Of a stretch of 64,000 nt of DNA, positions 1-29,895 are shown one piece after another. Within the stretch, counting starts at the first letter, position 1. Every line of letters begins with the position of its first letter. A program made the position numbers and the translations under genes. The stretch covers positions 14,658 to 78,657 of the forward strand of contig CAZGML010000007.1 in NCBI GenBank assembly GCA_964526965.1, read 5' to 3'. A model generated the notes under the pieces. The model had not been told where the DNA came from, ran no database searches, and saw only the letters and a list, made by a program, of their open reading frames with translations. This DNA comes from an uncultured Sphaerobacteraceae bacterium. Lineage in GTDB: Bacteria > Chloroflexota > Chloroflexia > Thermomicrobiales > UBA6265.

Positions 1-272
1 TTCAGCATTGATCCCATCACGCCACGAAGCATCAATTCGCTTTCGAACGTCAGCGCCATCACTAGCATGTAGTGAGGGGTCTCTTCGTTCGGTTCGATGG
101 GGAAATCACCCCAGTTCAAATCATCTGCCGGTGCGTATCGCCTGGCATACGCAGTTTCCAGACCGGGGATTTGATGCAGGAGTTCGTTAGAATCGGTTTG
201 TGCAGACGTGATCGTTGGCAACAAGGCAGCACCGAAAACACCGGTGATAAACGTTCTTCGGGATAGATACAT
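1..272 (-). CDS. Secreted hypothetical protein, N-terminal part only (gene runs off the left edge). Same family as the 15887-18182 array
   Basis: Open-ended, so absent from the ORF track. Reverse strand from ATG at 272 reads MYLSRRTFITGVFGAALLPTITSAQTDSNELLHQIPGLETAYARRYAPADDLNWGDF...HYMLVMALTFESE. The signal peptide ends in SAQ. The GLETAY.RRY and hhhhh-F-[ED]-S motifs match the N-terminal parts of the 15887, 16710 and 17562 genes. Confidence 0.55.
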   Translation of the reverse strand, partial: MYLSRRTFITGVFGAALLPTITSAQTDSNELLHQIPGLETAYARRYAPADDLNWGDFPIEPNEETPHYMLVMALTFESELMLRGVMGSML

Positions 273-296
273 ATGGCAGATATCGCCTCACGTAAG

Positions 297-3032: not shown

Positions 3033-4259
3033 TTAATTCGGCAGAACGATGCTGTTTTCGATTTCGGTGCGGAAGCGACGCTCGGCGGTGAATTGATCGT
3101 ACTCCACATCCTGAATCAGGATAAGGTAGCCATCTGTTCCCGGAATCGCCCGACAATTGACGAAGTACATCATGGGTACCCCATCCTCTTCATACACGAA
3201 GTTCGCAAATGCCTCGTTGCGGTAGACGCCACGGAACGCCCTGCCACTGGAGTCCCGGTCCAGCACAAGATCCAGGCCGCTGGCGCTAGCGGCGAAATCA
3301 ACGCACCCGGCAAGATCGCCAGCATACTGGTTGGTCGCCCAGAGCGTAACGATACTGGTGCCATTACCAACTACGAGCCGTTCATCGCCACCCTCGACGG
3401 ATTCATCCAGGATCTGCCATTCGAGCGGAATCTGGGCGGTGTAGCCATAATTCGGGCTCTTGTAGAGGCTGCCCGAGAGCCCGGTGTCTATCTCGACTCC
3501 GGTGATTTCGGTAGCTTCGGCTGTTTCCTCAACAATTGCCGTTGGATCGGCTGACTGCCCTTCTGTTGATGCATCTTCTGTATCGCTGAATTCGAGCGTA
3601 TCCAGAACATCCAGCGCGTGATCAAGCTCGGTATTGTATGCTCCCGGATTCGATGAGAGCAGCACGATCAGTACAGCATCCTGGCCGGGAATGGGCTCGC
3701 AGCTAATGTAGTCGACCAGCGGACTGGTCTCACCAGAGGCATAGGTATAGTTCAGATTGAAGACGCCCCAGGCGAGATTGTCGCTTTCATAGCGGAGTGG
3801 TTCGCCGTCCTGGCCGATGGCAGGCTCCCAATCCGAGATTGCGGCGGTTTGCGTAGAGTAATATTCCGATTCCCCATCAAGGCAGGCAACGGGGTCACTT
3901 CCGTACGCATCCCATGCCCAGATCGTGAAGGTGCTATTGTCCCGAAAGAGACGAACACCATCCACCGTGCCTTCCTGGATTTCGGAGTCGAGGGCCCAGA
4001 CGTCAGGATCATACTCAACGGAATATCCGTAAACCGGCCCGGTATACGTACCTGCTGGCTGTGAAGCCGGTTCATCCTGCGGGTCCTCCGCGGTTTCATC
4101 AGTGGTGTTGCCAGTGCGCGGGGTGCGGGTGATCTCGGTATCATCCTCCTGCGCGAACCTGAGCGAATCGGCACCGTGAGCACCTGGTGCCACCAGCGCC
4201 AGCATCACCAGGGCAGTGATACATATTCTCAGCAATATGGAGTGGCGGATTCGCCGCAT
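3033..4259 (-). CDS. Secreted hypothetical protein with two copies of a ~150-aa two-Cys domain
   Basis: Signal peptide MRRIRHSILLRICITALVMLALVAPGAHG. Domain 1 is YTGPVYGYSVEYDPDVW...DPVACLDGE...VDYISCEPIPGQDAVLIV...LDVLDTLEF. Domain 2 is YKSPNYGYTAQIPLEW...LAGCVDF...YFVNCRAIPGTDGYLILI. Confidence 0.8.
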   Translation of the reverse strand: MRRIRHSILLRICITALVMLALVAPGAHGADSLRFAQEDDTEITRTPRTGNTTDETAEDPQDEPASQPAGTYTGPVYGYSVEYDPDVWALDSEIQEGTVDGVRLFRDNSTFTIWAWDAYGSDPVACLDGESEYYSTQTAAISDWEPAIGQDGEPLRYESDNLAWGVFNLNYTYASGETSPLVDYISCEPIPGQDAVLIVLLSSNPGAYNTELDHALDVLDTLEFSDTEDASTEGQSADPTAIVEETAEATEITGVEIDTGLSGSLYKSPNYGYTAQIPLEWQILDESVEGGDERLVVGNGTSIVTLWATNQYAGDLAGCVDFAASASGLDLVLDRDSSGRAFRGVYRNEAFANFVYEEDGVPMMYFVNCRAIPGTDGYLILIQDVEYDQFTAERRFRTEIENSIVLPN

Positions 4260-4289: not shown

Positions 4290-5585
4290 TTATGGTGCGA
4301 ACTCGAGTGTTTCCAGAATATCCAGCACGGCGTCGAGATTGTTGTTGTACTCATCGGGGAACGATGTCATCTGCACGATGAGCACAGCATCTTCACCGGG
4401 GATTGTTTCGCAACTGATGTAATCGACGAATTCCACGTCGGCGCCAGTGGATGAGTGGAACGTGTAACTAAATACTCCCCACGCGAGTTCGTCGCTCTCG
4501 TATTTGAGCGAGTCACCGTTGGCACCAATCGTCAATTCCCAATCACTGATATCTTCGATGTCGCTGCTAAAATAGGCATCCTCGCCTTCGAGGCAGGCAA
4601 CGGGATCGGCACCGTATTCATTTGTGCCGGTGAAGAAAACGGTCGTCGATTCGCCATCGATGCGAACAGAATCAACGGTCGGACTTTCAAACGTATCGAC
4701 CTGGTTCCAGAGTGTGGTGTCGTACGTAAATGTGTACCCCCATACCGGACTGGTGTAGGTTCCGGCGTCGCCTGGTACAGCAACATCCTCTGTTGGTTCG
4801 GTGGTCGGTTCTTCTGTCGGGATTTCCGTTGGCTCAGTAGTCGGCTCTTCCGTGGCCACCGGTGTTTCGGTAGCATCACTGCCCGTGCGTGATGTACGGG
4901 TGATTTCCTCCGTGGGTTCTACCGTGGCCGATCCGGTCAGGTCCTCCGGCTGCTCCGTTGCTTCCGATTCGGTTGTTGCTGCGGGAGTCGTGGACCGGTC
5001 CCGACTACTGCGAGAATCCCGACCAGATGTTTCCGCCGTTGCATCAGCATCGGTACTACCGGCATCATCAGTCAGCCCCGTCAGCACCGGGGATCCATTG
5101 ATGGTGATTTCTTCGCTCGTGATACCGATTGAAGCGGACTGCAGTACCGGTATCGTACTCACGCCGACAAATACTGTGGCGTCACCATTGTTTATCGAGT
5201 GTGCCTCCGAGATGAAGACATCTCCTGTATCTTGCCCCTGCGATATGATGTACGGTGGATTCTCGGAACTGCCATCTTCAATGAGCTCGTCGCCCTCCTG
5301 ATACAGGGACCAGACCACATCCTCCGGCGTTATCATCTGACCATCCTCGATCATAATGATCACCGTGATGCTGCTATCCCTTGTCAGGGCGAGAAATGGG
5401 GAATCTTCTGGCGACGCGTCTACCACCCACTGGTCTGTCCAGGAGATCGTAACTCCGTGTTCCTCATCGGTGTAGCTGGTTTCATCTACCTGGGCGGTAG
5501 CCATTGCAACTCCGGAGAACATGGAGAAAAGCAACGCTGTAACTGCGGTCAGCCTGGTGATGAGATTTCTTGACTGGGTACTCAT
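4290..5585 (-). CDS. Secreted hypothetical protein, paralog of 3033-4259, with a Thr/Glu/Pro-rich linker
   Basis: Track ORF trimmed to the ATG at 5585 (MSTQSRNLITRLTAVTALLFSMFSGVAMATAQ signal peptide). The C-terminal domain YTSPVWGYTFTYDTTLW...DPVACLEGE...VDYISCETIPGEDAVLIV...LDILETLEF is near-colinear with domain 1 of the neighbouring gene. Confidence 0.8.
   Translation of the reverse strand: MSTQSRNLITRLTAVTALLFSMFSGVAMATAQVDETSYTDEEHGVTISWTDQWVVDASPEDSPFLALTRDSSITVIIMIEDGQMITPEDVVWSLYQEGDELIEDGSSENPPYIISQGQDTGDVFISEAHSINNGDATVFVGVSTIPVLQSASIGITSEEITINGSPVLTGLTDDAGSTDADATAETSGRDSRSSRDRSTTPAATTESEATEQPEDLTGSATVEPTEEITRTSRTGSDATETPVATEEPTTEPTEIPTEEPTTEPTEDVAVPGDAGTYTSPVWGYTFTYDTTLWNQVDTFESPTVDSVRIDGESTTVFFTGTNEYGADPVACLEGEDAYFSSDIEDISDWELTIGANGDSLKYESDELAWGVFSYTFHSSTGADVEFVDYISCETIPGEDAVLIVQMTSFPDEYNNNLDAVLDILETLEFAP
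4782..4853 (-). repeat. Coding tandem repeat, 2 x 36 nt (TEEPTTEPTEIP / TEEPTTEPTEDV)
   Basis: Read directly. Units are 4818-4853 and 4782-4817. The amino-acid repeat is conserved while synonymous positions differ. Confidence 0.8.
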
Positions 5586-5879
5586 TATGGGTCGCCTCTC
5601 AGTTCCTGCGAACACTCCAGGGATGGTCTGAAGCGTAAAACGTTGTGGAAGCGGGTGTTGTTCCACTGCATACAGCACCGGCCGCCCAACTGGTCAATAT
5701 CAACTGAGTACTAACAAGGGTTCGGGCGCATTCAAAATCTGTAGCTGCCCCTACTCTATCGTATCCAGCGGCCTTTTCGATGAAAACAGATGCAAACGAC
5801 GCTACAGTATGTGGGAATTTTGTACAGTTCTGGTTATGGCGCACCGGATTCGGATATCCGGGCAGCAAGGAGCACGAGG

Positions 5880-8558: not shown

Positions 8559-9518
8559 ATGTGTAGCTGCTGCACACCATCACGAAAATTGCCGGAATCA
8601 TCCCAACAGGATTCCCCTGGTCGTCATCAACCAGATGCATCGCAAACCACCACTCCGCCGGAAACCATGGTGCACATACCGGGCGGCACGTTTCTCATGG
8701 GCAATCCCCGAGGGGATGGCTACGAGGCAGATGGCGAGAGTCCGATCCATGAAGTGTCGCTCGATTCCTTCTGGATGGATGCAACGGCGGTCACCAATGC
8801 CCGGTTCGCGAACTTTACCGCGGCGACTGGTTATGTGACAGATGCCGAACGTTACGGTTGGTCATTTGTGTTCTGGAAGTTCCTGCCCCATGAGTTGCAA
8901 GCTGGTGCGGCACCGCCCGGCGCTCCATGGTGGCGGCAGGTTCAAGGGGCGAGCTGGCGACACCCGGAGGGTCCACAAAGCACCATCGAGCGGCGTATGG
9001 AGTATCCCGTAACGCATATCAGCTGGAACGATGCCCAGGCGTTTTGCACGTGGGCTGGAACGCGCCTGCCAACTGAGACGGAGTGGGAATATGCCGCCCG
9101 CGGCGGGCGAGAGGGCGATCCCTTCCCGTGGGGATCGGAGCTCGAACCGAATGGCGAGCAGCGGATGAACGTCTGGCAGGGATCGTTCTCTGGCCACAAC
9201 TCACAGGCAGACGGTTTCGCCGGCACCGCACCGGTAACCGCCTACCAGCCGAACGCCTACGGGCTCTACAACATGACTGGAAATGTGTGGGAATGGTGCG
9301 CCGATTGGTTCTCTCCGGAAACCTATCAACGGGAACCGGTTACCAATCCGACCGGACCTGGGCGAGGCGAGGCAAAAGTGCTGCGCGGAGGGTCGTATCT
9401 CTGCCACGCCTCGTACTGCAATCGCTACCGCGTTGATTCCCGCTCATCCAATACGCCCGATTCATCAACAGGGAACCTGGGATTCAGATGCGTCTGGGTG
9501 GAGCCGGCAACGGAATAA
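8559..9518 (+). CDS. Formylglycine-generating enzyme (FGE/SUMF1 family)
   Basis: MVHIPGGTFLMGNPRGDGYEADGESPIHEVSLDSFWMDATAVTNARFANFTAATGYVTDAERYGW...RGGSYLCHASYCNRYRVDSRSSNTPDSSTGNLGFRCV. RBS GGAAGAGG precedes the ATG at 8559, so the N-terminal MCSCCTPSRK is probably translated. Confidence 0.9.
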   Translation: MCSCCTPSRKLPESSQQDSPGRHQPDASQTTTPPETMVHIPGGTFLMGNPRGDGYEADGESPIHEVSLDSFWMDATAVTNARFANFTAATGYVTDAERYGWSFVFWKFLPHELQAGAAPPGAPWWRQVQGASWRHPEGPQSTIERRMEYPVTHISWNDAQAFCTWAGTRLPTETEWEYAARGGREGDPFPWGSELEPNGEQRMNVWQGSFSGHNSQADGFAGTAPVTAYQPNAYGLYNMTGNVWEWCADWFSPETYQREPVTNPTGPGRGEAKVLRGGSYLCHASYCNRYRVDSRSSNTPDSSTGNLGFRCVWVEPATE

Positions 9519-9641
9519 CCAGTCACGGTTTTAAGAGCAAGTAAAAGTGGCTCGCATGGCATGAGTTATGCACGTGCCTTGCCGGGCCACATAATCGGCT
9601 TTGGCACACTCCGGTGGGCTACGTGCTTGAAGGAATCGTGA

Positions 9642-10055
9642 ATGTATAAATTTCTCCAGGACATCACGAGCCACACGTTACCCGTTTCCGCCATCCCGTC
9701 TACGCTCGACGTCGGCCTCACCCGGAATCCGACGGCGATCCGAAAAAACATCCCCGACTGGCATTTCCTCGTTCGCGTACTTTTGGCGATCTTCACTATT
9801 GTGGCGTCGCTCATGGTCACGCTAGTCAATCTCGTCGGCAATTTCACACCAACCCACGCAGCCGGGCTGATGATTATGAGCGTCTGCGCGGACGCGTCCT
9901 TCCTGATTATCCTGACCCAAACCTCCGAAAACGATATGGCACGGGGTGATAACCGCCTCTTTGTTGATCCCCGATACATGCGGGCGTATCGCCCAACTGT
10001 CCCGGCTAGAAGAAAGGGAGAACATACCGGTACATCTCCTGCAGTTGATTCGTAA
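9642..10055 (+). CDS. Hypothetical small membrane protein (two predicted TM segments)
   Basis: AAGGA lies 8 nt before the ATG. GC3 bias holds over the first ~100 codons. Hydrophobic stretches FLVRVLLAIFTIVASLMVTLVNLV and AAGLMIMSVCADASFLIIL. Same strand as the flanking FGE and sulfatase genes. No family recognised. Confidence 0.4.
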   Translation: MYKFLQDITSHTLPVSAIPSTLDVGLTRNPTAIRKNIPDWHFLVRVLLAIFTIVASLMVTLVNLVGNFTPTHAAGLMIMSVCADASFLIILTQTSENDMARGDNRLFVDPRYMRAYRPTVPARRKGEHTGTSPAVDS

Positions 10056-10089
10056 ATCTGTACGCCAGTAAAAGAAAGGACAATCTTCA

Positions 10090-11751
10090 ATGGCTTCCAG
10101 CGATACCACCAAAAACCAGCAGCGTCCAAATATCCTCGTTCTTTGTATCGACCAGTGGGATACGCATATGAAACTGCCCGAAGGCGTGGAACTGCCGGCT
10201 CTTGAGCGGCTCCAGCAGCGAGGAGTTACTTTCGACAGGCAGTACTGCACCATTCCAATCTGCACACCTTCCCGTGCAACGATGTGGACCGGCCAGCACG
10301 CCAAGAAGATCGACATGTGGGATAACACCAACTTCGCCTGGCTGGTTGATGGCGGCCTCTCGCCCGACGTTCCAACACTGGGCACAATGCTGCGCGAACA
10401 GGGATATTACACGAGCTTTAAAGGCAAATGGCACCTGAGCCCCAACGAGGGCGGCGAAGACATGCTCGAGAAATACGGATTCTCTGACTACCAGCAGTGG
10501 GGCGATATGTTTGGCGAACCGCTGGAAGGTGAGAAGCTGGATGGTACCGTTGCCATGCATACGGTCGACTGGCTGGAGAACAAGGCACCGGATCTCAAGC
10601 AGCCATGGCTCCATGTAAGCAGCATGGTTAATCCGCACGACATCATGTACTTCTACTCAGATGCCGAGGCGGAGTGGGAGCGATTCTCCCCGAGCATGCA
10701 GGCAAAACTCACTACCGCGCAGGATCTTGGGTTCTTCAAGGATTGGGATCCAGACCTGCCGGAGAACTTCTACGATGACCTCTCCCAGCAGCCGTTGGGT
10801 GTGCACTCTTACAAGGAGAACATCAACCGGGTATACGGTGCGCCGCCAGATGACCGCGAAGACCTCTGGAAGGCCCGCCGGAACTATCTGATTAACTGCA
10901 TGCGCCTCGTTGATATGGAATTCCAAAAGATCCTGGATGCCCTGGACCGCCAGAACCTCTGGGAGAACACAATCGTCATCTACACCAGCGATCACGGCGA
11001 GATGAACGGCGCCCACCGCATGCACCAAAAGGGTGCCATTCACTACGACGAAGCAGCGGTGGTGAACTTCACGGCTGTGGTGCCTGGTGGTCCGCAGGGC
11101 GCACACACGAGCTCCATTGGTTCGCACCTCGACCTCGTGCCGACGTTGCTCGATTTTGCCGGTGTGGATGAAAATGAGATGCGAGAGCGCTATCCGCAAC
11201 TCCCCGGTCGATCGATGCGGGGTTCCATCATGAATCCATCCCAGCCAGGGCCACGCGGCTCGGTTGAGCAACCCGCCGATGGCGCACTCATATGTTGGGA
11301 TGGCCTCAATATGCTCGATCCGGAGTGGAACTCTTCCGGCGCCTTGGGCGGATTGATGGATCTGGGCCTTGATGCCGATGGAAACAGAAAAGCGCTGCAG
11401 GAGGCCGGCAAGGACTATGGTGCACCAGACTTCGGGCGCCGCACCTTCTACCGCGCCGTGGTCGATGGACATTACAAGTTGGTTCGCTGGTTCTCCCCAC
11501 GCGAGTATGACCTTCCCAAATCGCTGGATGAGCTCTATGCCCAAAGCGATGTTACGCTGCACGACCTCGTGAATGACCCGGGCGAAATGGAAAATCTCGG
11601 TAACAGGAACCACCCACAGCACAATCCGGAAATCGTGGAGCGCATGCTCACCAAGCTGAACGCACTCATCGAGCAGGAACTCGGCGACGACCAGTGCCCG
11701 TTCGATCTCAACATGTTCGGGACACAGGATGTTACGTACCAGACCGCGTAA
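10090..11751 (+). CDS. Sulfatase (type I, Cys-type, formylglycine-dependent)
   Basis: NILVLCIDQWD metal-binding start. Active-site motif C-T-P-S-R in IPICTPSRATMWTGQH (nt 10261-10275). ...IVIYTSDHGEMNGAHRMHQKG. No signal peptide seen. Confidence 0.92.
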   Translation: MASSDTTKNQQRPNILVLCIDQWDTHMKLPEGVELPALERLQQRGVTFDRQYCTIPICTPSRATMWTGQHAKKIDMWDNTNFAWLVDGGLSPDVPTLGTMLREQGYYTSFKGKWHLSPNEGGEDMLEKYGFSDYQQWGDMFGEPLEGEKLDGTVAMHTVDWLENKAPDLKQPWLHVSSMVNPHDIMYFYSDAEAEWERFSPSMQAKLTTAQDLGFFKDWDPDLPENFYDDLSQQPLGVHSYKENINRVYGAPPDDREDLWKARRNYLINCMRLVDMEFQKILDALDRQNLWENTIVIYTSDHGEMNGAHRMHQKGAIHYDEAAVVNFTAVVPGGPQGAHTSSIGSHLDLVPTLLDFAGVDENEMRERYPQLPGRSMRGSIMNPSQPGPRGSVEQPADGALICWDGLNMLDPEWNSSGALGGLMDLGLDADGNRKALQEAGKDYGAPDFGRRTFYRAVVDGHYKLVRWFSPREYDLPKSLDELYAQSDVTLHDLVNDPGEMENLGNRNHPQHNPEIVERMLTKLNALIEQELGDDQCPFDLNMFGTQDVTYQTA

Positions 11752-11945
11752 TGCTACACGCCTGGCGTAGTGGCCAGCCTGGTTTCCAGCCCCCATCGGG
11801 GGATCGGTGAGCCAAACCGCACTGAACGTGAGCGTTGGTGCCGGGTTTGGTGAGTATGGTTCCAATGTCTGTGCTGGCTACTGTGATGATCGTGGCCGGT
11901 TTGAGTGCAACAGCGATGAATAACCCAGTGATGAGGACGGCAGAC

Positions 11946-12518
11946 ATGTGGAATGAGCTAAACGAAGCGCTTGCGGCGGTATTCGGCGAAAACAACCTGA
12001 ACGCCCTCCAGACGGCACTGCGAGCGGTGATCACGTTCATCATCACTGTGGCTGCGATCCGCCTCGGCAACAAGCGACTCTTCGGGAAGGGCACCGCGTT
12101 CGACACCGTCGTCGCGATCATGATCGGTTCAGTTATGAGCCGGGCGATCACCGGATCGGGTTCCGGAACGATGCTGGCGGTCTGGGGAGCCGGCCTCACG
12201 CTTATTGGCATGCATTGGCTGGTATCGACGCTCTCGTTCCACAACTCCTGGTTCGGACCATTGGTTAAAGGCCATGAAGTGGAGTTGGTTCGGGATGGCC
12301 ATATCCTCGACGACAAGATGCAGAGAACGGGCACATCCCGGCGCGACCTGAAGCGGGCCATGCGCTCAAATGGGCATTATCCGGATTTTGAAACAATCCA
12401 AATGGCCCATATGGAGCGAGATGGCTCCATCAGTATCGTGACGAAATCCTCCGAACCGAGGATCGTCGATATCGACGTGAAAGATGGCGTCCAGACCGTG
12501 CGAATCGCGCTGGATTAG
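11946..12518 (+). CDS. DUF421 (YetF-like) membrane protein
   Basis: Start set at the ATG at 11946 (GAGGA 8 nt upstream). RAVITFIITVAAIRLGNKRLFGKGTAFDTVVAIMIGSVMSRAI followed by a soluble C-terminal domain is typical of DUF421. The start is uncertain (track ORF begins at 11835). Confidence 0.75.
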   Translation: MWNELNEALAAVFGENNLNALQTALRAVITFIITVAAIRLGNKRLFGKGTAFDTVVAIMIGSVMSRAITGSGSGTMLAVWGAGLTLIGMHWLVSTLSFHNSWFGPLVKGHEVELVRDGHILDDKMQRTGTSRRDLKRAMRSNGHYPDFETIQMAHMERDGSISIVTKSSEPRIVDIDVKDGVQTVRIALD

Positions 12519-12579
12519 CCTGACTGCGTTTGCCGCCAGTTCCCGGATATAGTTTCGAGTTGATGGCCGTCCCAAACAC

Positions 12580-13038
12580 TCAGTTCACGGTTTTCACCAT
12601 CAACAGGCATGGATTCGATATACCCCATAAATCGGGAAACGCCATCTGCTCCTCAAAACCAACTGCCCGGTAGAACGCGCGGGTAGCAGCGTACTCCGGC
12701 GAAGGGTGCGAGGCATCCAATGTCTTCACGCTCAGAAGGCTGTTGCCTGGTAAATGTTTTTCCAGTGCAGCAACCAGCGCGCGGCCGATGCCCTTGCGAT
12801 GTTGCGATTTTGCGACCGCCATCCAGCTTATTTCCGAACTCCCAGGAAATAGCCGTTGCCAGGTGAGGTAGCCAACAACAGCACCATTCTCCACCGCAAC
12901 GAGACCTGTGTGTTCGTGCAAATACCCTTCCGCTTCGGCGAGACCGTCTTCCTGACCGAACCATTTGGGTAAGGAACGATTAATAGCAATACAACCTGGG
13001 ATGTCCTCAAAAGAGAGGGGGCAAATAGTTACGTGCAT
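12580..13038 (-). CDS. GNAT family N-acetyltransferase
   Basis: Trimmed to MHVTICPLSFEDI. Acetyl-CoA motif A is present: MAVAKSQHRKGIGRALVAALEKHL, then ATRAFYRAVGFE. Confidence 0.85.
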   Translation of the reverse strand: MHVTICPLSFEDIPGCIAINRSLPKWFGQEDGLAEAEGYLHEHTGLVAVENGAVVGYLTWQRLFPGSSEISWMAVAKSQHRKGIGRALVAALEKHLPGNSLLSVKTLDASHPSPEYAATRAFYRAVGFEEQMAFPDLWGISNPCLLMVKTVN

Positions 13039-13146
13039 GACAAAACTCCGGATCGTTTTCCGCTTTGGACATGTGGGTTTAATATTTTTGTCATGCAATC
13101 ATGACCGGAGTATATCAGGTCATAAAAATCTCTGGAGATATCGCTC

Positions 13147-14226
13147 CTACAACGACTTTCCGGCTTCAGCCTGCTCTCGCTCCTCGTGCGATTTTTCCTC
13201 TTCCACAGAGAGTGCAAGGCGCAGCACACCGAGGATGATGAGGTTCAACACCAGCCCAATCATGGCGAGGAACTGCTGGGTGGCAAACGCGAAGAACTGA
13301 CCGAACAACAACGCCACAACTGTGGATGCAGCGAATGCCTGGAGTGCCCGCACTCGTTGTCGACGCAGGAGCATCACCAACCCGTATACGGCCAGGAATC
13401 CGGTGATAGCTCCGGCGGCAAATGAGAGGATCTCGCCAATAGAGAGACCGTCACTCAGGTCGTACTCTTCCGTCACGAAGAGTCCCATAAGAAGTGTGAT
13501 AATGATCTCCAGGGCGCGAATGATGAAAAGCCCGATCACCACTGGTTGCAGCCACTGCTGCCGAACGATTCGCTTGTACAGGTCTGCCGCCTTGTCACGC
13601 GTTGCCAGGATGCGCGACTTCTCCGCTTCTTCCTCTAACTCCGCGTTCTCCAGTAATTCACGCAGTCGGGTTGCCACCTCAGAGGTATTGCCGCTGGCGT
13701 CGAGATTTGCCAGTGCCTCTGCCTGCCGGCGCCGATCCAGCTTCCCGATTGCCTGCCAGGCGACTCCCTGCGCGGCGAGGTAGAGGTGATCCGCCTCGGT
13801 TGGTTCGCGTTTCCGATCGAAATAGCGGGCTGCGAAATAGAGGACGATAAAGACCGCGTACATGATCGCTGCCGTTGGCTGATAGAAGTAGTCGTTGTCC
13901 TGGGTGATGAACTTGCCAAGTTCATCAATAAACGTACCGAACCCGATGCCACCGAGCAGCGCCGCAATGGGCTTCCAGACCGGGCTGGCGAAGAGAAGCA
14001 GGACGCCAAACGCGATCACCATACCGAGTCCGCCCCACAACATGTGGGCGATATGCAGCTCACCGCCGCCGACCTGCGGATACCCGGTCAGGTAGAGGTA
14101 CAGCCGAATAATCAGAACGGTGGCTACGGCAGAGACCAGCCATATCTCCAGAAGGGCGGCGCTGCGCGGGTCTCGAATTCGATAAGGATTGCCATAGACA
14201 TCGTTATTCGTAAGCTTTTTGGACAT
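13147..14226 (-). CDS. Hypothetical polytopic membrane protein with a central coiled-coil
   Basis: Trimmed to MSKKLTNNDVYGNPY. There are about 4 N-terminal TM segments (HIAHMLWGGLGMVIAFGVLLLF, GIGFGTFIDELGKF), a charged helical middle and about 4 C-terminal TM segments. No family recognised. Confidence 0.75.
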   Translation of the reverse strand: MSKKLTNNDVYGNPYRIRDPRSAALLEIWLVSAVATVLIIRLYLYLTGYPQVGGGELHIAHMLWGGLGMVIAFGVLLLFASPVWKPIAALLGGIGFGTFIDELGKFITQDNDYFYQPTAAIMYAVFIVLYFAARYFDRKREPTEADHLYLAAQGVAWQAIGKLDRRRQAEALANLDASGNTSEVATRLRELLENAELEEEAEKSRILATRDKAADLYKRIVRQQWLQPVVIGLFIIRALEIIITLLMGLFVTEEYDLSDGLSIGEILSFAAGAITGFLAVYGLVMLLRRQRVRALQAFAASTVVALLFGQFFAFATQQFLAMIGLVLNLIILGVLRLALSVEEEKSHEEREQAEAGKSL

Positions 14227-14348
14227 CGGCGTTCTCCGAATCGTGCTGCGGGCGGTTCTTCGATGATCGTACTCGCTAACCGTGCTACCGGGCATATAGG
14301 AGTACAATTCAGCCCATCGCTGTTTGCGCCCATATGGAGGGGGTTACC

Positions 14349-15695
14349 ATGCTCAGATTCGTTTCAGTCGTTCTCCTCGCAGTCGCCTTGCTTATTCCTT
14401 CGAGCACCTACGCCCAAAGCGGCGATGCCACCTGGCTCAACAACATGGAGGGCCTGGAAACGGGCATTGGCAGGTCATGGGCCGCGCCTTTCACTGTTAG
14501 CGAATCATCCACCATAGCCGAGGTGAATGCAGAAGGCACAGTCACCGCCGAGCACACCACCTGGTCGACTCCTGAGGCATCGCCGGAGATCTCGGATGAG
14601 ATGCAGACCAGCATGCTAAGTGCGCTCATCTATCACTATGATTCCACGCAGAATGCCGCGCAGGGAATCGAACTCTTCCACGAAGCACAGCTCGATCAAA
14701 TCTCCCGCGATCCACGCAATCCGGCGACGAACGAGTTCGAGCCGGAAATCAAGGCAGATGTCGCCTTTGGCAACGAAGGCTCCTATGAAGTCCCGGATCT
14801 CCAGGGTAGAACCAGTGAGATGGCGGTGGTCTACATCCTCGCGCAGGATGGCGAGCTGATCTATCAGGTGTTCGGCGTTTTCCTGCCGGGCCAACACATT
14901 GAGATTGCGACCGGCGTTGCCGAGCAGATGATTGCGGCAGATATTGGCGACGCTGAGCCCATGCACGACATGAATGGCGACTCGACTGGCGGACTCTGGG
15001 AAAAGCTGAACGCCATCGATATCGCGATGCCGGAGGATTCGACGATCGCCGACCTGCAGGTGTATCCACCTGCAGACGATGCCGTAATGGGCGACTCGGT
15101 TGTTGTGCCGCAAATCGATCTTCATCAGCTGGGGACCGTTCCCGGTATGCAGGGAAGCTGGCACATTACCTACGCGCCCGCCGAAACTGGCGTGATGATG
15201 GCGACACCAGATGTGGTTCCGGAGGGCGTTTTCAATATCGAACTCTGGGTGTTGAATTTCGACGACGCTACGTACGCTACAGCGGCGGCAGTAGCGATGA
15301 GCAACGCGCTTATCGAACCGCTCGGTGTTACCGGCAATGAAAGCGGGAACCTCGGCAGTGGCGGCATTACGCTCGTGAACAGCGGCTTCGTGCGAGACCG
15401 ATCCATACCAGAAGGCGACGCAGCTACCGTAGTTGTTGCCGATGGAACGACTCTGTATGCGGCCCGTGTGTACTCAAACGGACCGGCGCCAACGCCACTC
15501 GCCCAGGATCTGATCGACGGCATGGTCGCCGCAGAAACCGGGGATGCAGCCGAATCGGTAGCCGGCAACGACGCCAGCGGCGGCATGTGGGATATCTTCC
15601 CCCAGCCTGGCGATGACCTGCTCTACGGCCTTGAGCCGGCGAATGTTCGATACGCAGAGCCGAGTGCCGAGCCGGATTCAACGCCGGTTGGATAA
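14349..15695 (+). CDS. Secreted acidic protein, two copies of the GG-[WF] domain (array member 1)
   Basis: Start at the ATG at 14349 (GGAGG 8 nt upstream). Signal peptide MLRFVSVVLLAVALLIPSSTYAQ. Domain ends are NGDSTGGLWEKL (nt 14976-15002) and NDASGGMWDIFPQPGDDLLYGLEP (nt 15570-15593). Confidence 0.8.
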   Translation: MLRFVSVVLLAVALLIPSSTYAQSGDATWLNNMEGLETGIGRSWAAPFTVSESSTIAEVNAEGTVTAEHTTWSTPEASPEISDEMQTSMLSALIYHYDSTQNAAQGIELFHEAQLDQISRDPRNPATNEFEPEIKADVAFGNEGSYEVPDLQGRTSEMAVVYILAQDGELIYQVFGVFLPGQHIEIATGVAEQMIAADIGDAEPMHDMNGDSTGGLWEKLNAIDIAMPEDSTIADLQVYPPADDAVMGDSVVVPQIDLHQLGTVPGMQGSWHITYAPAETGVMMATPDVVPEGVFNIELWVLNFDDATYATAAAVAMSNALIEPLGVTGNESGNLGSGGITLVNSGFVRDRSIPEGDAATVVVADGTTLYAARVYSNGPAPTPLAQDLIDGMVAAETGDAAESVAGNDASGGMWDIFPQPGDDLLYGLEPANVRYAEPSAEPDSTPVG

Positions 15696-15886
15696 GCCCG
15701 ACAGCTACTTGCAGACGTTACCTAACCCTCTGGCCTGGGGTGTGCGAGTTTCGGATTTGGAAAGCGCGGGAACCAAATGCGAACCTGTGACGTCAGAGGC
15801 AATGTAGGATATGGCACACAACGTGCGTATCCACATTGCGTACGAAAGGGTGTCGATCGATACTCTGCTACCCAAGGAGATGGAAC

Positions 15887-16633
15887 ATGGTGCGGAAATT
15901 TGCAGCGCTGTTTGCGCTGATTCTTACCTTCGGCCTGGCTGCTGTGCCAGTAGCCGCGCAGGACGTGGATCCGGGCGATCTTGATGCAGTTGGCATGGAA
16001 AGCGGATACCTCCGCATGTACCTGGCCGATCCGTCGGATCCGGCTAATACCGACCTGCTCGGTGTGATGGTCGTCGGTATCGAATTCCAGGATGCCGAAA
16101 GCCTTGACGAAGGCTTCGAAGACTTCACTTGTGGCTTTGCTGGCGGATTCCTCGGTACAGTGGATGCCGTTGATTGCGACGGCCTGGTTGATGCAGGGTT
16201 CGACGTTGCTGATGTCACCGGTATCGGCGATAAGGCAATCGAGGTTTCGGGCGAAGCCGATGTTAGTGGCCCAACCCCAACGACCATGCTTGCCCTGCAG
16301 TCTGAAAACCAGCTGTTTATCGTGATCTACCTCGGTGAGGCCAACCCGGGTGTTGCCGATGACTTCGGCACATACCTCGCAGATGCCGAGCCAGTAGACA
16401 CTGAGGTTCAGTTCAGTGAGGACGGCACCTCCACCGGCGGCTTCTTCGACATGCTGCCGCAGGAAGGCGATCCGCTGCTCGATGGCCTGATGCCGATGAT
16501 GGATGATGACCTGGTTGGCTCGGTAACCGGAACCCCGGAAACCGACATGGACAGCGATCTCGGCGACGATATGGATAGTGATCTCGGCGATGACATGGAC
16601 GATCTCGACGAAGAGAGCACTCCAGCCGCCTAG
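15887..16633 (+). CDS. Secreted acidic protein, one GG-[WF] domain plus poly-acidic tail (array member 2)
   Basis: AAGGAG RBS. Signal peptide MVRKFAALFALILTFGLAAVPVAAQ. Domain end is SEDGTSTGGFFDMLPQEGDPLLDGLMP (nt 16421-16450). Tail is DMDSDLGDDMDSDLGDDMDDLDEE. Confidence 0.8.
   Translation: MVRKFAALFALILTFGLAAVPVAAQDVDPGDLDAVGMESGYLRMYLADPSDPANTDLLGVMVVGIEFQDAESLDEGFEDFTCGFAGGFLGTVDAVDCDGLVDAGFDVADVTGIGDKAIEVSGEADVSGPTPTTMLALQSENQLFIVIYLGEANPGVADDFGTYLADAEPVDTEVQFSEDGTSTGGFFDMLPQEGDPLLDGLMPMMDDDLVGSVTGTPETDMDSDLGDDMDSDLGDDMDDLDEESTPAA
16544..16615 (+). repeat. Coding tandem repeat, 3 x 24 nt (DMDSDLGD, DMDSDLGD, DMDDLDEE)
   Basis: Read directly. Units are 16544-16567, 16568-16591 and 16592-16615 (the third is degenerate). 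Confidence 0.8.
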
Positions 16634-16709
16634 GCTCACAATTCAAACGCTCAGCAAGAGTCCGTCTGAAAGTTCAGACGGGCTCTTCTTTCAAATTCAG
16701 GGGATATAC

Positions 16710-17417
16710 ATGAAACGATTCTTTGTCACACTCTCCTTGCTCCTCTCCCTTGGCCTTACCACCGTGAGTGTTGCAGCGCAGACGGACCCAGGCGGTACAC
16801 CGGACCCGATGGCCGGCGTTGAAGACGCCTATCGCTCGATAGAAGGCGTGGAGTCGGCTTACGACCGCACTTTCTCCATCGACCCCATGGCGTTGACAAG
16901 CACACCAGAAGACGGTGACGCTGGCCAAATCGATATGTCCGCCATGATGTACGTTATCAGCATCCAGGGCATCACGTTTGATAGCGAAGAGAACGCCACT
17001 GCATATATTGATGACATGACGTCTGCCCTTGAGGAGGCCCAGGGAGATGCCGACGCCGGGTCGATGCTGGAGGATGTTGAGATTTCGAATCTTGATGACC
17101 TCGATGTCGATGGAACTCGCATCGAGACCACCGTGCCAGATGTCGACCTCGCCGCTTCCCAGATCGTATTTAGCGATGACAAGTACGTATTCCAAATCGT
17201 GGTTATTCAGCCAGATATGGAAACTGCAGGGTCCATCACCGATGACATTGCCAACTTCATGATCGATGCAGACACCGAAGCCGACGAAGTGACCTTCAGC
17301 GACGACGGCACATCCACTGGTGGCGTGTTTGACCGCATGCCCACTGGCGACGATGACGTGGTGGGTGAACTCACGTTCGTGACGGATACGGAAATCTTTA
17401 CCAACGAGGAAGACTAA
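16710..17417 (+). CDS. Secreted acidic protein, one GG-[WF] domain (array member 3)
   Basis: ATG at 16710. Signal peptide MKRFFVTLSLLLSLGLTTVSVAAQ. Domain end is SDDGTSTGGVFDRMPTGDDDVVGELTF (nt 17304-17333). Confidence 0.8.
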   Translation: MKRFFVTLSLLLSLGLTTVSVAAQTDPGGTPDPMAGVEDAYRSIEGVESAYDRTFSIDPMALTSTPEDGDAGQIDMSAMMYVISIQGITFDSEENATAYIDDMTSALEEAQGDADAGSMLEDVEISNLDDLDVDGTRIETTVPDVDLAASQIVFSDDKYVFQIVVIQPDMETAGSITDDIANFMIDADTEADEVTFSDDGTSTGGVFDRMPTGDDDVVGELTFVTDTEIFTNEED

Positions 17418-17561
17418 CCGCTTCCTGAATCGAGAGATTGAGTTACGAGGGAACTTGCCTGGTTTGAGGCAGGTTCCCGCTTTTTCACCGTAGGTGGCAC
17501 AGTGCAGTGCGTATACTTTCGGAAGTGCGATTCTGCACCCGTGTTCCAGAAAGGCACCACG

Positions 17562-18182
17562 TTGAAATTTCTTATCACCGTTGCATCCGTGCTTCTTCTT
17601 ACTCTGCCTCAGGTAGCCTCTGCCCAAACACCGGTAGCGGATGAAGGGCTACAGGTTATTGCCGAGCGTCAGTACGCGGCTGACCCCGAGGGCAATATCG
17701 ATACAGGTAGCGAGGGGATCTATCTCGCCAGCGTGCGGGTCTATCTCTTTGACAACGCGGATGGAGCCGAATCCACCTGGGAAACACTGGTAGCAGCGGA
17801 TTCAGTCGAGGCTGATCTTCCGGAGGACGATGATTCCTTCACCTACGAGAAAACCGAAATCGATGATATCGGCGACCGCGCCATGGTACTGAACCTGAGC
17901 GCAGAGATCCGCGAGGATGAAACAGCCACCTTCCGCACGATGATCATCCAGAAAGGCGCGATGATCGTGACCGTCAACGCTATCGCAGGGTCAGCGGATG
18001 ATGCCGAAGGAGCCGATGCTATTGCAATCGCGATGATCGAGCGCCAGCCCGGCGATGGTGAATCCGAATACGATGGCAATGGTGGTTCTACGGGTGGCGT
18101 ATGGGAGGTTTTCCTGCCCGCCGATGCCGAAGAACTCGGCGAACTCCAGGCCTATGCTGACAAGGAAACCCGACCGGCCTAG
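17562..18182 (+). CDS. Secreted acidic protein, one GG-[WF] domain (array member 4)
   Basis: Probable TTG start at 17562 (AGAAAGG upstream), giving the signal peptide (M)KFLITVASVLLLTLPQVASAQ. Domain end is DGNGGSTGGVWEVFLPADAEELGELQAY (nt 18081-18107). The track ORF begins at 17502. Confidence 0.7.
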   Translation: MKFLITVASVLLLTLPQVASAQTPVADEGLQVIAERQYAADPEGNIDTGSEGIYLASVRVYLFDNADGAESTWETLVAADSVEADLPEDDDSFTYEKTEIDDIGDRAMVLNLSAEIREDETATFRTMIIQKGAMIVTVNAIAGSADDAEGADAIAIAMIERQPGDGESEYDGNGGSTGGVWEVFLPADAEELGELQAYADKETRPA

Positions 18183-22537: not shown

Positions 22538-24073
22538 CTACTCGCCGACCGAGGTTTCTGGCAGCGTCATCCAGGTCTGGGCAGATGTTGGCTCAAAGCC
22601 ACTGACGTTCTGCGCGGTACCCCAGTGATTGTTCTTGGTAGCAATGAAGAGCAGCGGAGCTTCTTCCGCAATCAGCATCTCGGCTTCGTTGTAGACGGCG
22701 CGTCGCTCTTCGAAGTCGGTGAGCTGGCGGGCTTCTGTGAGCAGTTCGTCCAGCTCTTCGTTGCTGTATTCGAAGGCGTTGACGGATCCACCGGTAACGA
22801 GTGCCGGGTAGAGTGCGCGGTCCGGATCGTTCCCGGAGCCGTTGAAGCTGACGAAGCTCTCGAACTCACCGCTGTTCCAGCGCTCGATAAAGGTACCCCA
22901 CTCGACCTGGTCCATGATCACTTCCACGCCGATTTCGCGAAGCTGATCCTGAATCACAAGCGCGATGTTGACGAACTCGGTGCGGTTGGCACCAACGGTG
23001 ATGCTGAAAGAGAGGTCTGTGGCCCCGGCCTCTTCGAGCAGTGCCTGTGCTCCCTCGCGGTCGACCTCGTAGTTCGGGAGCTCTTCAATCGGCAGTGCCC
23101 AGTCGCCCAGGGTTGGAACGAGCGGACCAGATACCTGGCCAGCACCGAAGAAGACACTGTCGATAATCGCCTGGCGGTCGATAGCCATGCTCAGGGCCTG
23201 ACGGACCTTAACGTCGTCAAACGGTGGGTTTGAGGTGTTGAACCCAAGCAGGTAGTAGTCGGTGGTTTCCTGGTCGATCATCACCACGCTGTCATCACCG
23301 CGGGCGGTATCAATCGCAACCGGGTCGATCATTGAGGTGAGGTGGATTTCACCGGTTCGCACCGCAGCGAGGCGGGCGGTTTCTTCCGGCATGATGTTGT
23401 ACCGGAGGTTTGGTGTAACCGGCTGACCTTCGCGCCAGTAGCCGTCATGCGCTTCCATGATGGTGTGGGTATCCTGAACGTGATCCACCATCTTGTACGG
23501 GCCAGTGCCGATCATTTCTTGCTCGAAATCGATGCCCTCGCGACTCGGGAGAATGGATGCATAGGTGGCGGTAAGCACCGAAAGGAAGGGGCCGTAGCTC
23601 TGCTTCAGGTTGAAGGTAACCTCCAGGTCGCCAGTGGCCTCAACGGAGTCCAGCGGCTCGAACTGGCTCACCCAAACACTGCCACCGTCCGGATCCATCA
23701 GGCGCTCGAAGGTGAAGACCACGTCGTCGGCGGTCAGCGGATCGCCATTGTGGAAGGTAACGCCTTCGCGAAGCTTGAAGACGTAGGTCGTGTCGTCCGG
23801 CTGTTCCCAGCTTTCTGCCAGAATCGGCACGGGGTGGCCGTCTTCATCGAAGATGATGAGCGTATCGCACACTGCAGCGAGAAGTTCGAAGCTCGCCGAG
23901 GCGGTGACCATGGCCGGGTCCCACCCGACGGCCTCTTCGGCCTTGCCGATAATCAGGGTGTCGGAGCCATCCTGCGCGAACGCCCGGCCCGGAATCGTGC
24001 AAAAGCTACCAACGGCAGCTGCCGCAGCGGTGCCCTTAAGAAGCGTACGACGGTCAACTGAATGTGTGGTCAT
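22538..24073 (-). CDS. ABC transporter substrate-binding protein, family 5 (peptide/nickel), Tat-type signal
   Basis: Start at the ATG at 24073 (GGGAGA 7 nt upstream). MTTHSVDRRTLLKGTAAAAAVGS. Family-5 core is TFHNGDPLTADDVVFTFERL. The track ORF begins at 24088. Confidence 0.9.
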   Translation of the reverse strand: MTTHSVDRRTLLKGTAAAAAVGSFCTIPGRAFAQDGSDTLIIGKAEEAVGWDPAMVTASASFELLAAVCDTLIIFDEDGHPVPILAESWEQPDDTTYVFKLREGVTFHNGDPLTADDVVFTFERLMDPDGGSVWVSQFEPLDSVEATGDLEVTFNLKQSYGPFLSVLTATYASILPSREGIDFEQEMIGTGPYKMVDHVQDTHTIMEAHDGYWREGQPVTPNLRYNIMPEETARLAAVRTGEIHLTSMIDPVAIDTARGDDSVVMIDQETTDYYLLGFNTSNPPFDDVKVRQALSMAIDRQAIIDSVFFGAGQVSGPLVPTLGDWALPIEELPNYEVDREGAQALLEEAGATDLSFSITVGANRTEFVNIALVIQDQLREIGVEVIMDQVEWGTFIERWNSGEFESFVSFNGSGNDPDRALYPALVTGGSVNAFEYSNEELDELLTEARQLTDFEERRAVYNEAEMLIAEEAPLLFIATKNNHWGTAQNVSGFEPTSAQTWMTLPETSVGE

Positions 24074-24286
24074 TACCGAATCTCCCATTTAAACGAATAA
24101 AAATCGTCAGTACTGTAAAGTAACTGGATACCATATTGAAGGATATACCCGGCGTTGACAAGGCAAATCGGTAGGCCGGATCACAACCCTCCACGGGGTG
24201 TAGGGATTCTCCCGATGAAGTTGTATTCAGTACGCGATACGCTATGTGCAAGAAATGTTTGAGGCTGTTGCCGGAAAGGAGCCGAC

Positions 24287-28227: not shown

Positions 28228-29895
28228 CTAGTCTTCGATTGTTGCGTCGTTCACCAGGAACCCGCCGGTTGGGAACACCTGCAACCCCTGAACGCGCTTG
28301 TTAACTGCCGTCTTGGTGATGGGCATGTAGAGCGGAATCCACGGGAGATCCTCCAGCAGGATTTCCTGCGCACGGTAGTAGACCTCCATGCGCTCTTCCT
28401 GGTCCATGGTCTGCTGGCCCTCGAGCAGCAGTTCATCAAATTCCGGATTCGAGTAGTGCACGCGGTTGGATGACTCCAGCCGATCGGTGCTCAGGAAGAG
28501 ATGAAGCACGTCCGGGTCGCTCCAGCCCCAGGTCAGCAGCAGCATGTCGTGCTCGCCACGCGGGGTGAAATCCAGCAGTGCTGCCAACTCCAGGGCATTG
28601 ATCTGCACATCTACGCCAATAAGCCGGTACTGCGCCTGCAGCAGGGTGGCAAGCTGGCCGAGCGTGGCGGATGTGTTGGTGTACAGCTCGGGCGCGAGCT
28701 TCTGGCCGTCCTTCTCGCGGATACCATCGTCGCCTTCAACCCAGCCGGCTTCATCCAGCAGGGCCTTGGCCGCCTCGATGTCGAACGCTGGCGACAGTTC
28801 TTCCAACTCTTCGTTGTAACCCGGTACGGATGGTGGCAGCGGCGTGGAAACCGGTTCGGCCAGCCCACCCTCGAAGAGTGTGGAGACGATTTCGTCGCGG
28901 TTGGTAGCGTGGGCAAGCGCCTTTCGGACACGCGGATCTTCCATCATAGGGCGAGTTCGGGTGAGACCGAGGTAGCCCATGGTGGTGTTGCGCGCAGAGA
29001 ATATCTCGTAGTTGTCGTCGTTTTCGAACCGCGGCAGGTCGGTGGCGGTGAGGTCGACAGCGTCGACTTCGCCGGTCTCCAGCGATGCAACCTGTGCAAA
29101 CGGCTCGGCAATTACGCGCCACTGCAGTCCTTCGAGGTGCGGCGCACCCTGGTTTTCAAAGTACTCCTCAGGCGTGGTGAAATCCTCAAACTTCGAGAGG
29201 GTGACGCTGGAACCGGTCTGCCATTCGCTGAACTGGAAGGAATTGGTACCAACCGGCTGCCGACCATAATCCTCACCCGCGGCTTCTACGGCGCTCTCGC
29301 TGAGCATGGCTCCGTAGCCACCGGCGAAGGAGTTGAAGAAGCCGGCGTTGGGTGCATCAAAGACAAGCTTGACGGTGAGCGGATCGATCACTTCCACGTT
29401 GATTGCCAGCGCGGCGTCGTAGATCGGGCTCTTGGCGCCGATTTCTTTCAGTCGCTCAATGGTGAACTTCACCGAATCGGCGTTGAACTCACTGCCATCG
29501 TGGAACGTGACGCCTTCACGAAGGTTGAATGTGATTTCGGTGTTGTCGTCGTTGATCTCCCAGTCTTCGGCCAGCAGTCCCTTGAACGAAAGATCAAGGT
29601 CCTGATAGACGAGTGCGCTGTAGATCTCGGTGAAAACGGTCCACGAAACGCTGTTGGACGTGATGTGCGGATCAAGCGTTTCCGGATCGGAAGCCAGCAC
29701 TTCGGTAAACACGCCGCTCATATCCTGCGCAGCGGCGATACCAGCAGGAACAGCCACTCCTGCGGCACCGAGCACTGCAGACATCGCCTTGGGGGTCATG
29801 CCCAGGGCAATACCGCGTTGCATGAATGTTCGGCGATCGATTTTACGATCCTGAACATCATCCAACAGGCTGCGCAAAGAATCATTCTGTGACAT
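28228..29895 (-). CDS. ABC transporter substrate-binding protein, family 5, Tat-type signal
   Basis: RBS GAGGAGAG. MSQNDSLRSLLDDVQDRKIDRRTFMQRGIALGM. Family-5 core is TFHDGSEFNADSVKFTIERL. Confidence 0.92.
   Translation of the reverse strand: MSQNDSLRSLLDDVQDRKIDRRTFMQRGIALGMTPKAMSAVLGAAGVAVPAGIAAAQDMSGVFTEVLASDPETLDPHITSNSVSWTVFTEIYSALVYQDLDLSFKGLLAEDWEINDDNTEITFNLREGVTFHDGSEFNADSVKFTIERLKEIGAKSPIYDAALAINVEVIDPLTVKLVFDAPNAGFFNSFAGGYGAMLSESAVEAAGEDYGRQPVGTNSFQFSEWQTGSSVTLSKFEDFTTPEEYFENQGAPHLEGLQWRVIAEPFAQVASLETGEVDAVDLTATDLPRFENDDNYEIFSARNTTMGYLGLTRTRPMMEDPRVRKALAHATNRDEIVSTLFEGGLAEPVSTPLPPSVPGYNEELEELSPAFDIEAAKALLDEAGWVEGDDGIREKDGQKLAPELYTNTSATLGQLATLLQAQYRLIGVDVQINALELAALLDFTPRGEHDMLLLTWGWSDPDVLHLFLSTDRLESSNRVHYSNPEFDELLLEGQQTMDQEERMEVYYRAQEILLEDLPWIPLYMPITKTAVNKRVQGLQVFPTGGFLVNDATIED

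Follow-up and report, generated by a model that had tools for sequence, protein, structure and literature searches.

Among the described proteins closest to those analysed here are three from mycobacteria: PknH, a sensor, TiME, which forms tubes, and LpqN, which helps lipid exporters. TiME (Rv3705c) has a PknH-like domain and a Sec signal with an A-X-A end, and the monomers of both PknH and TiME carry two conserved intramolecular disulfides (PMC4118811; PMC8378821). In the TiME monomer, as described, an antiparallel sheet of nine strands is sandwiched by two groups of three helices each. The protein forms 7- to 8-mer rings that stack into tubes in the mycobacterial envelope, and the ring interface is made of small conserved residues, with G31 and A89 on one side and G48 and G196 on the other (PMC8378821). 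LpqN was proposed as the connector of MmpL3 and MmpL11 with periplasmic proteins (PMC7458404). A further near family, DUF7373, is uncharacterised, and no mention of it was found in the literature searched. We analysed a stretch of 64,000 nucleotides (hereafter the window) on contig CAZGML010000007.1 of an uncultured Sphaerobacteraceae bacterium from the Chloroflexota. Four plus-strand genes at positions 14349-18182, here called G1 to G4, hold five colinear copies of an acidic, apparently exported domain of ~190 amino acids (aa), which carries the motif G-x-S-T-G-G-x-[WF]-[DE] (the end motif; Table 1). We found that the five copies are homologous and that the array is an old set of paralogues in fixed order. 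At a probability of about 0.5 for the claim as a whole, we propose that G1 to G4 belong to an anchorless, non-enzymatic, Thermomicrobiales-restricted α/β-sandwich family that resembles PknH_C and DUF7373 and whose exported members serve jointly as binding or scaffold proteins of the envelope.

The family hidden Markov model (HMM) recognised all five copies, with E-values of 6e-17 and 2e-8 for the two halves of G1, 2e-68 for G2, 6e-74 for G3 and 4e-56 for G4. Given that the pairwise BLASTP identity among the paralogues was just 23-33%, that their composition is strongly biased, and that long antisense open reading frames (ORFs) overlap G2 and G3, the copies could be alike merely through low-complexity acidic sequence, and the genes could be unrelated or not real. 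This explanation was refuted. A profile built from G3 orthologues alone gave 29.0 bits for the first domain of G1 (G1a), 10.8 for the second (G1b), 50.0 for G2 and 34.4 for G4, and none of 500 composition-preserving shuffles equalled the real score of any of the four. When the end motif and everything downstream of it were deleted, the real score was equalled by 0 (G1a), 7 (G1b), 1 (G2) and 0 (G4) of 1000 shuffles, indicating that the similarity is not merely that of the motif or of the acidity. When the five orthologue-group profiles were aligned with each other by hhalign, 114-188 columns were colinear, the probability was 77-99.8% and the E-value ranged from 2e-5 down to 6e-29. Moreover, each gene has conserved orthologues with signal peptides, and the fold models are confident; the AlphaFold2 model of G1 (predicted local distance difference test score, pLDDT, 81.7) contains two domains whose elements follow the order seen in G3. 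The four same-strand genes and five colinear copies reported in the earlier note were therefore confirmed, as were the positions of all five end motifs, and the similarity withstood the comparison with shuffled acidic sequence that the note had named as a way to refute it. The second G1 domain is the most degenerate of the copies. As for the two antisense ORFs, they are probably a by-product of the plus-strand codon bias, and nothing points to their being genes.

Relatives of the domain were then sought in sequence databases. Among 5.8 billion proteins, the single sequence of G3 retrieved 43 and a profile retrieved 169, and a search with G1 gave 44 orthologues that were 43-99% identical. An exhaustive HMMER search gave 367 clusters (50% identity) among 1.84 billion, whose proteins have a single domain at ~200-240 aa and two to three domains at ~400-640 aa. 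No informative name and no precomputed Pfam domain were found among these database relatives, and the cluster names of ten distant relatives read only 'hypothetical protein'. The scan for copy number and distribution, which had been suggested beforehand, gave 20 loci in genomes, all of them in Chloroflexota metagenome-assembled genomes (MAGs) labelled Thermomicrobiales, Sphaerobacteraceae or Chloroflexia. These results show that the family is small and unnamed and has a narrow taxonomic range, in agreement with the earlier view of an exported, lineage-restricted domain without an assigned family.

Eight of these loci (L001-L008) share the gene order G1 (a+b), G2, G3, sometimes a second G3-like gene, and G4, in 1:1 orthology with the window. 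Orthologues were 34-80% identical to their window counterparts (G2 52-80%, G4 50-73%), against the 23-33% seen between paralogues. The closest locus to the window, L003 from an 'uncultured Sphaerobacteraceae' MAG, shares 80% identity in G2, 73% in G4 and 93% in the neighbouring Mrp. Two further loci (L023 and L024) have the same layout as judged by gene size and position, and the more distant L009-L012, L015, L018 and L019 keep arrays of three to six family genes. Since 1:1 orthologues stand in the same order, are closer to each other than the paralogues are, and the arrays are kept in distant genomes, the duplications are old, each paralogue has been retained, and the array is a fixed order of non-redundant paralogues. 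This speaks against the recent copies that local gene amplification, the first reading of the array, would suggest: an orthologue of each gene occupies the same position in at least eight related genomes. G3, at 34-51%, is the fastest-evolving paralogue in most genome pairs, and the extra G3-like gene lies between G3 and G4 at 10542-11375 in L001, 7017-7760 in L005 and 2784-3464 in L006. The assembly behind L024 (ENA ERZ4567617), a contig with the same array and synteny, is called 'Nepal_MoBio_Fiber-Hadza-Nepal' and seems to be a metagenome of human stool; this source is odd for Thermomicrobiales and may reflect dietary or environmental carry-over.

We examined the N-termini of the four proteins by inspection. 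With a slash at the putative cleavage position, they read MLRFVSVVLLAVALLIPSSTYA/QSG in G1 (end TYA/Q), MVRKFAALFALILTFGLAAVPVAA/QDV in G2 (VAA/Q), MKRFFVTLSLLLSLGLTTVSVAA/QTD in G3 (VAA/Q) and (M)KFLITVASVLLLTLPQVASA/QTP in G4 (ASA/Q). All start with a basic n-region that leads into a hydrophobic core, and all close with an A-x-A-type end; the A-Q pair is invariant in an alignment of 21 sequences, so that these conserved signal peptides point to Sec export of G1 to G4. No paralogue or aligned orthologue has a cysteine at or near the cleavage site and hence none has a lipobox, indicating that G1 to G4 are not lipoproteins. The extreme acidity noted earlier was also confirmed (D+E 15-23%, K+R 1.6-5.3%).

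However, neither the acidity nor the A-Q end marks the family, as unrelated exported proteins of the window share both. Three of its solute-binding proteins and two secreted proteins without a name likewise have isoelectric points (pI) of 4.1-4.3, while its cytoplasmic proteins lie mostly at pI 4.6-5.9, with a few near neutral. Three unrelated exported proteins on the minus strand (pI ~4.1-4.3; two of SBP_bac_5 type) have signal peptides that end in AFA/QD, AAA/QD and VSA/QE. Gln at +1 and extreme acidity thus look like organism-wide traits of exported proteins; the combination suggests an N-terminal pyroglutamate, and the organism probably comes from a saline habitat. Halophily as a trait of the family was rejected, because unrelated exported proteins are equally acidic, and A-Q as a special sorting mark was rejected, because it is common in the signal peptides of this organism. 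Two secreted proteins of 408 and 462 aa (pI 4.1, no Pfam match) are paralogues of each other and are conserved as a pair beside the dynamin-like GTPase in L001, L004, L007 and L024; they represent another unassigned exported family.

The AlphaFold2 model of mature G3 (pLDDT 87.5, predicted template modelling score 0.84) is a confident α/β sandwich with seven long and two short β-strands and six to seven helices (one long, several short); its elements include a small hairpin and a final strand. In Foldseek searches of the PDB, the G3 model had no match at E ≤ 1e-3, and the same weak set was returned for the G3 and G1 models: PknH (4esq), TiME (7cu8/7cu9), DcrB (6e8a), EagT6/SciW, Mtc28 (4ol4/4pws), LpqN (6e5d), Apa and PsbP. 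The extracellular sensor domain of PknH had an E-value of 1.7e-3; values further down were those of DcrB (E 0.011-0.021, TMt 0.41), Mtc28 (E 0.03-0.06), LpqN (E 0.054) and PsbP (E 0.046-0.12). At the sequence level, DUF7373_N (PF24088) was the only recurrent Pfam match, mostly sub-threshold: it was found in 18 of 139 distant members and in 24 of 45 G1 orthologues (best 3.5e-5). The curated cut-off of both this profile and PknH_C (PF14032) is 27 bits. One distant two-domain member (P0245, 403 aa) reached 29.7 bits against DUF7373_N, above the cut-off, whereas G1 stayed below it with 15.5 bits at full length and 15.9 as the mature protein, and G2-G4 gave no match. The family consensus matched DUF7373_N at E 0.0017 (residues 32-155 on profile positions 65-173 of 193), and it matched both DUF7373_N and PknH_C colinearly over ~115 residues. 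PknH_C was matched by 2 of 121 members (best E 2.3e-4) and by the consensus at 15.5 bits, under the cut-off. The earlier note had been unable to place the domain in any family. This still holds at threshold, but the weak recurrent matches to PknH, TiME, DcrB, Mtc28, LpqN, PsbP, DUF7373_N and PknH_C, and the passing score of P0245, now narrow the field. The only near-match in the PDB sequences, of GSSTGG to the S-adenosylmethionine-binding loop of TlyA-type methyltransferases (E 0.54), was dismissed as chance.

We further studied the end motif. In domain 1 of G1, G188, S190, G192, G193, W195 and E196 are invariant across 45 G1 orthologues. In domain 2, the SGG is removed by an 11-residue deletion or reads SDD in several orthologues, and only W392 and P396 are invariant. 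The claim that the end motif is invariant is therefore true of the first G1 domain and fails for the second, which has the weakest copy. Among 458 domain copies, the best-conserved positions (G3 numbering) were G46, R53, F90, A96, G200, S202, G204, G205 and D226; G200, S202, G204 and G205 reached 0.91, 0.89, 0.98 and 0.97, respectively, and D226 was present in all copies that align there. In the G3 model, the D-G of F-[SN]-x-D-G-T-S-T makes the turn of a tight hairpin, the G-G runs into a short helix that bears the aromatic residue, and the conserved strand with the invariant Asp comes next, all at pLDDT >90. Block means of pLDDT were 92-96 over model residues 171-210, with the strand at 200-208 following the motif. 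The Pfam profile matches reach to about family position 155, so that everything beyond (helix, D-G hairpin, end-motif element and last strand) is family-specific.

These features could also be read as those of secreted serine hydrolases, in which G-x-S-x-G-G would be a nucleophile elbow and the conserved Asp would complete a Ser-Asp dyad on an unusual fold. A G-x-S-x-G-type motif is present in four of the five window copies, its letters GTSTGG would be those of the patatin lipase motif, the conservation of the four motif residues and of D226 is high, and in the G3 model the motif has a short strand on one side and a helix on the other. However, there is no conserved His anywhere in the domain among the 458 copies, and a Ser-His-Asp triad was rejected for this reason. 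Both glycines are better conserved than the Ser, which is replaced by Ala in 5% of the copies, and several second domains of G1 have lost the motif though that domain stays conserved. Moreover, the modelled Ser sits in a β-bridge of the D-G hairpin, three residues ahead of the helix, and not in a strand-helix elbow, and the best fold matches are all non-enzymatic binding domains, with no hydrolase fold among the structural matches. We therefore consider a hydrolase improbable. For the preferred binding or scaffold proteins, the end motif would be a family-specific hairpin-plus-helix that completes the domain with the last β-strand, and its role would probably be that of a structural or binding-site element.

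The genomic neighbourhoods differ among the loci. In the clade of the window, the array is preceded by a block with a dynamin-like GTPase and YceI and followed by Mrp/NUBPL. A functional link to Mrp/NUBPL was rejected, since this adjacency was found only among close relatives (Mrp 87-93% identical). Compared with most relatives, the window has extra genes between YceI and the array, encoding FGE-sulfatase, sulfatase, YetF, GNAT and a membrane protein; the last, an unnamed polytopic protein of 386 aa, is divergent from G1 and shared with L003 only. In a second clade, one or two transporters of the MMPL family (resistance-nodulation-division, RND) divergently adjoin the array (L010 2601-7514; L011 2635-7549; L012 1-1571), ~170-270 base pairs (bp) from its first gene, and an acyl-CoA dehydrogenase gene follows the array in L009, L011, L012, L017 and L019, and as fragments in L010. 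In a third clade (L014, L015 and L018), genes for SpaA/SdrD_B-repeat surface proteins and an ORF with a sortase domain are intermingled with the family genes. The array is thus kept together in at least three different neighbourhoods, which argues that the paralogues work as a set, and these neighbourhoods are all envelope-themed.

The third clade bears on the earlier proposal that the GG-[WF] motif could signal processing or anchoring. In that case, a sortase or a similar enzyme would cleave the end motif, or the [LMF]-P-x-x-G-D after it, to attach the domain to the wall, and the ...W[DE]KFPxxxDP of the family does loosely resemble a KFPNTGVDP upstream of the sortase domain in the clade's ORF. 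However, the family has no conserved Thr at the cleavage position, as an LPXTG-type motif would require, and neither a hydrophobic segment nor a basic tail follows the end motif, the tails being acidic. In addition, the ~25 residues after the motif are modelled as a conserved in-sheet β-strand, with the invariant Asp, at pLDDT >90. The sortase association itself comes from one lineage, whose sortases are 90% identical, and the window has no sortase gene. Judging from the model, the end motif most likely lies inside the fold, and the missing hydrophobic anchor and basic tail make a sorting or processing signal very unlikely. The sortase ORF is unusual in its own right, being a surface protein fused to its own sortase: in L015 (5758-9654), L018 (15236-17725) and L014 (803-4297), a single conserved ORF joins SpaA/SdrD_B-like 'CP(P/A)GYD' repeats to an LPXTG-like FPNTG and, through a linker, to a sortase domain at the C-terminus. 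Family genes and another large repeat protein stand on its flanks.

A set of paralogues that is kept together across neighbourhoods would also fit a multi-subunit assembly, and we considered whether the five to six domain copies could build a TiME-like ring or tube of the envelope, as the PknH-like Rv3705c does, but hetero-oligomeric. TiME chains are among the top Foldseek matches, TiME is likewise a Sec-exported PknH-like single domain that forms rings via a small-residue interface (PMC8378821), and the best-conserved positions of the family include small residues (G46, A96, G200, G204 and G205). However, the disulfides of TiME are absent. The PknH_C profile extends only to about family position 152, which places the GG motif outside the core that is shared, so that it cannot be the counterpart of TiME G196; a numerical match of the conserved Gly/Ala positions to the TiME interface was dropped for the same reason. 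Such a ring is unlikely. With similarly low probability, a Thermomicrobiales-specific hetero-oligomeric structure, either a TiME-like ring or tube or a carrier relay, might take over lipids or proteins from membrane exporters, which are MMPL-type in some lineages, and carry them through the wall of these Chloroflexota, which is unusual and rich in protein, with the motif hairpin-helix as the subunit interface or cargo site.

Our preferred reading remains that of exported binding or scaffold proteins, for which an envelope or extracellular role, as first suggested, is a sensible interpretation. The proteins would be exported by Sec and cleaved by signal peptidase I at A/Q, and the five domain copies would then act jointly in the wall zone as binding or scaffold modules, possibly in a hetero-assembly. 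The likeliest cargo would be a hydrophobic or amphiphilic envelope component passed on by membrane exporters, as was proposed for LpqN with MmpL3 and MmpL11, although a lipid or MMPL-linked cargo is in itself a tentative idea. Several results weigh against this reading. None of G1 to G4 had a Pfam or NCBIfam match at threshold, so that no Pfam cut-off was reached, and searches of PDB sequences with two family profiles and one distant member returned nothing. The four disulfide cysteines of PknH and TiME are missing: G1, G3 and G4 have no Cys at all, and G2, the only paralogue with any, has two. The MMPL and sortase associations occur in one sub-lineage each, and because neither gene is present in the window, they are only a lead. 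Identities of 63-93% were found between the neighbours in different genomes of the window's clade, where synteny may thus have been simply inherited, and the adjacency of the dynamin-like GTPase, YceI and Mrp/NUBPL may just mirror shared ancestry.

Little is understood of the envelopes of Chloroflexota, and most Thermomicrobiales are uncultured; a conserved, co-located set of exported paralogues offers a handle on envelope biogenesis in this group. The signature F-[NS]-x-D-G-T-S-T-G-G could be used to find these organisms in metagenomes. If the hetero-oligomeric structure were true, no trans-envelope device would have been described before it in this phylum, the envelope architecture of which is debated; if the function were ordinary ligand binding, the family would be one more lineage-specific domain of unknown function. 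On the present results, this is an uncharacterised family of modest interest and not a system of a new kind.

Table 1. Features of the array and other window features discussed in the text (window positions).
Feature	Positions	Strand	Remarks
G1	14349-15695	+	448 aa, two domain copies; ORF with start codon, GGAGG upstream
G1 signal peptide	14349-14414	+	
G1 domain 1	~14361-15044	+	HMM envelope
G1 domain 2	~15117-15638	+	HMM envelope
End motif, G1 domain 1	14976-15002	+	GDSTGGLWE
End motif, G1 domain 2	15570-15593	+	DASGGMWD; degenerate, weakest copy
G2	15887-16633	+	248 aa, single domain
G2 signal peptide	15887-15958	+	
G2 end motif	16424-16450	+	
Tandem repeat in G2	16543-16600	+	24 bp, 2.4 copies, Tandem Repeats Finder score 88; encodes acidic DMDSDLGD tail
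G3	16710-17417	+	235 aa, single domain
G3 signal peptide	16710-16778	+	
G3 end motif	17307-17333	+	
Terminator-like hairpin between G3 and G4	17449-17478	+	12-bp stem, then T-rich tail; consensus scan only
G4	17562-18182	+	206 aa, single domain; TTG start
G4 signal peptide	17562-17624	+	
G4 end motif	18081-18107	+	
Probable sixth family member	1-287	-	N-terminal 95 aa, divergent, truncated by window edge; MYLSRRTFITG...TSAQTD..GLETAYARRY..ALTFESE
Antisense ORF over G2	15722-16639	-	305 aa
Antisense ORF over G3	16674-17627	-	317 aa
Unnamed secreted protein	3033-4259	-	408 aa
Unnamed secreted protein	4290-5678	-	462 aa
Extra genes between YceI and array	8559-14307		
Polytopic membrane protein	13147-14307		386 aa
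Unrelated exported protein	22538-24088	-	signal peptide end AFA/QD
Unrelated exported protein	28228-29895	-	signal peptide end AAA/QD
Unrelated exported protein	58311-59144	-	signal peptide end VSA/QE

The remaining features of the array are as follows. The N-terminus of G4 from the TTG start aligns with the MKK... start of the family, and a GTG at 17541 is an alternative start. Ribosome-binding sites of GGAGG, AGGAG or AGGGGA type precede G1-G3, and G4 has only a weaker GAAAGG. The DMDSDLGD repeat described earlier was recovered in the tail of G2. The GC content of the array region (0.55-0.58) matches that of the remainder of the window. The hairpin between G3 and G4 could divide the transcription of G1-G3 from that of G4-Mrp; it is weak evidence, because the promoter and terminator scan of the region found no excess over shuffles (three terminator-like sites against 4.6 expected). 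Rfam and tRNA scans of the window gave no matches. At the window edge, the truncated minus-strand ORF matched the family HMM at E 1.8e-4 over profile positions 20-83 and was 31% identical to the family member P0209 (E 3e-8, in a small database), suggesting that it is a sixth, divergent member. The SRRxF (SRRTF) in its signal peptide, which ends in TSA/Q, resembles a twin-arginine translocation (Tat) signal, and at least one member may thus use Tat export.

We finally compared the family with known systems. Recurring for both models in Foldseek were Mog1/PsbP-like proteins (LpqN 6e5d, Mtc28 4ol4, DcrB 6e8a, EagT6/SciW and PsbP), but at E-values of 0.007-0.1 and template modelling scores of 0.25-0.41, and with no sequence signal. 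LpqN and DcrB are lipoproteins, while the present family has no lipobox, and its window has no MMPL gene. LpqN is nevertheless comparable in its proposed link to MmpL3 and MmpL11 (PMC7458404), as the family adjoins MMPL genes in L010-L012. DUF7373_N is matched colinearly from the strand-F-D-x-x-x-x-A landmark through the β-meander, but nothing matches past about profile position 173 of 193, leaving the helix, the G-x-S-T-G-G motif and the last strand uncovered. PknH_C and TiME share with the family an extracytoplasmic single domain of ~190 aa with Sec export (predicted in the family), they provide the top Foldseek matches and weak colinear Pfam matches, all below threshold, and the number of elements in the G3 model fits the published description of the TiME monomer (PMC8378821). 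In contrast to these PknH-like domains, the family is not fused to a kinase, belongs to another phylum, forms a fixed multi-paralogue array and has an additional conserved C-terminal element with the GG motif. Because the score cut-offs were missed and the disulfides of PknH and TiME are absent, we regard the family as a probable far-diverged offshoot of the PknH_C/DUF7373 fold class, to which LpqN, Mtc28, DcrB and PsbP would also belong, and as a member of neither Pfam family.

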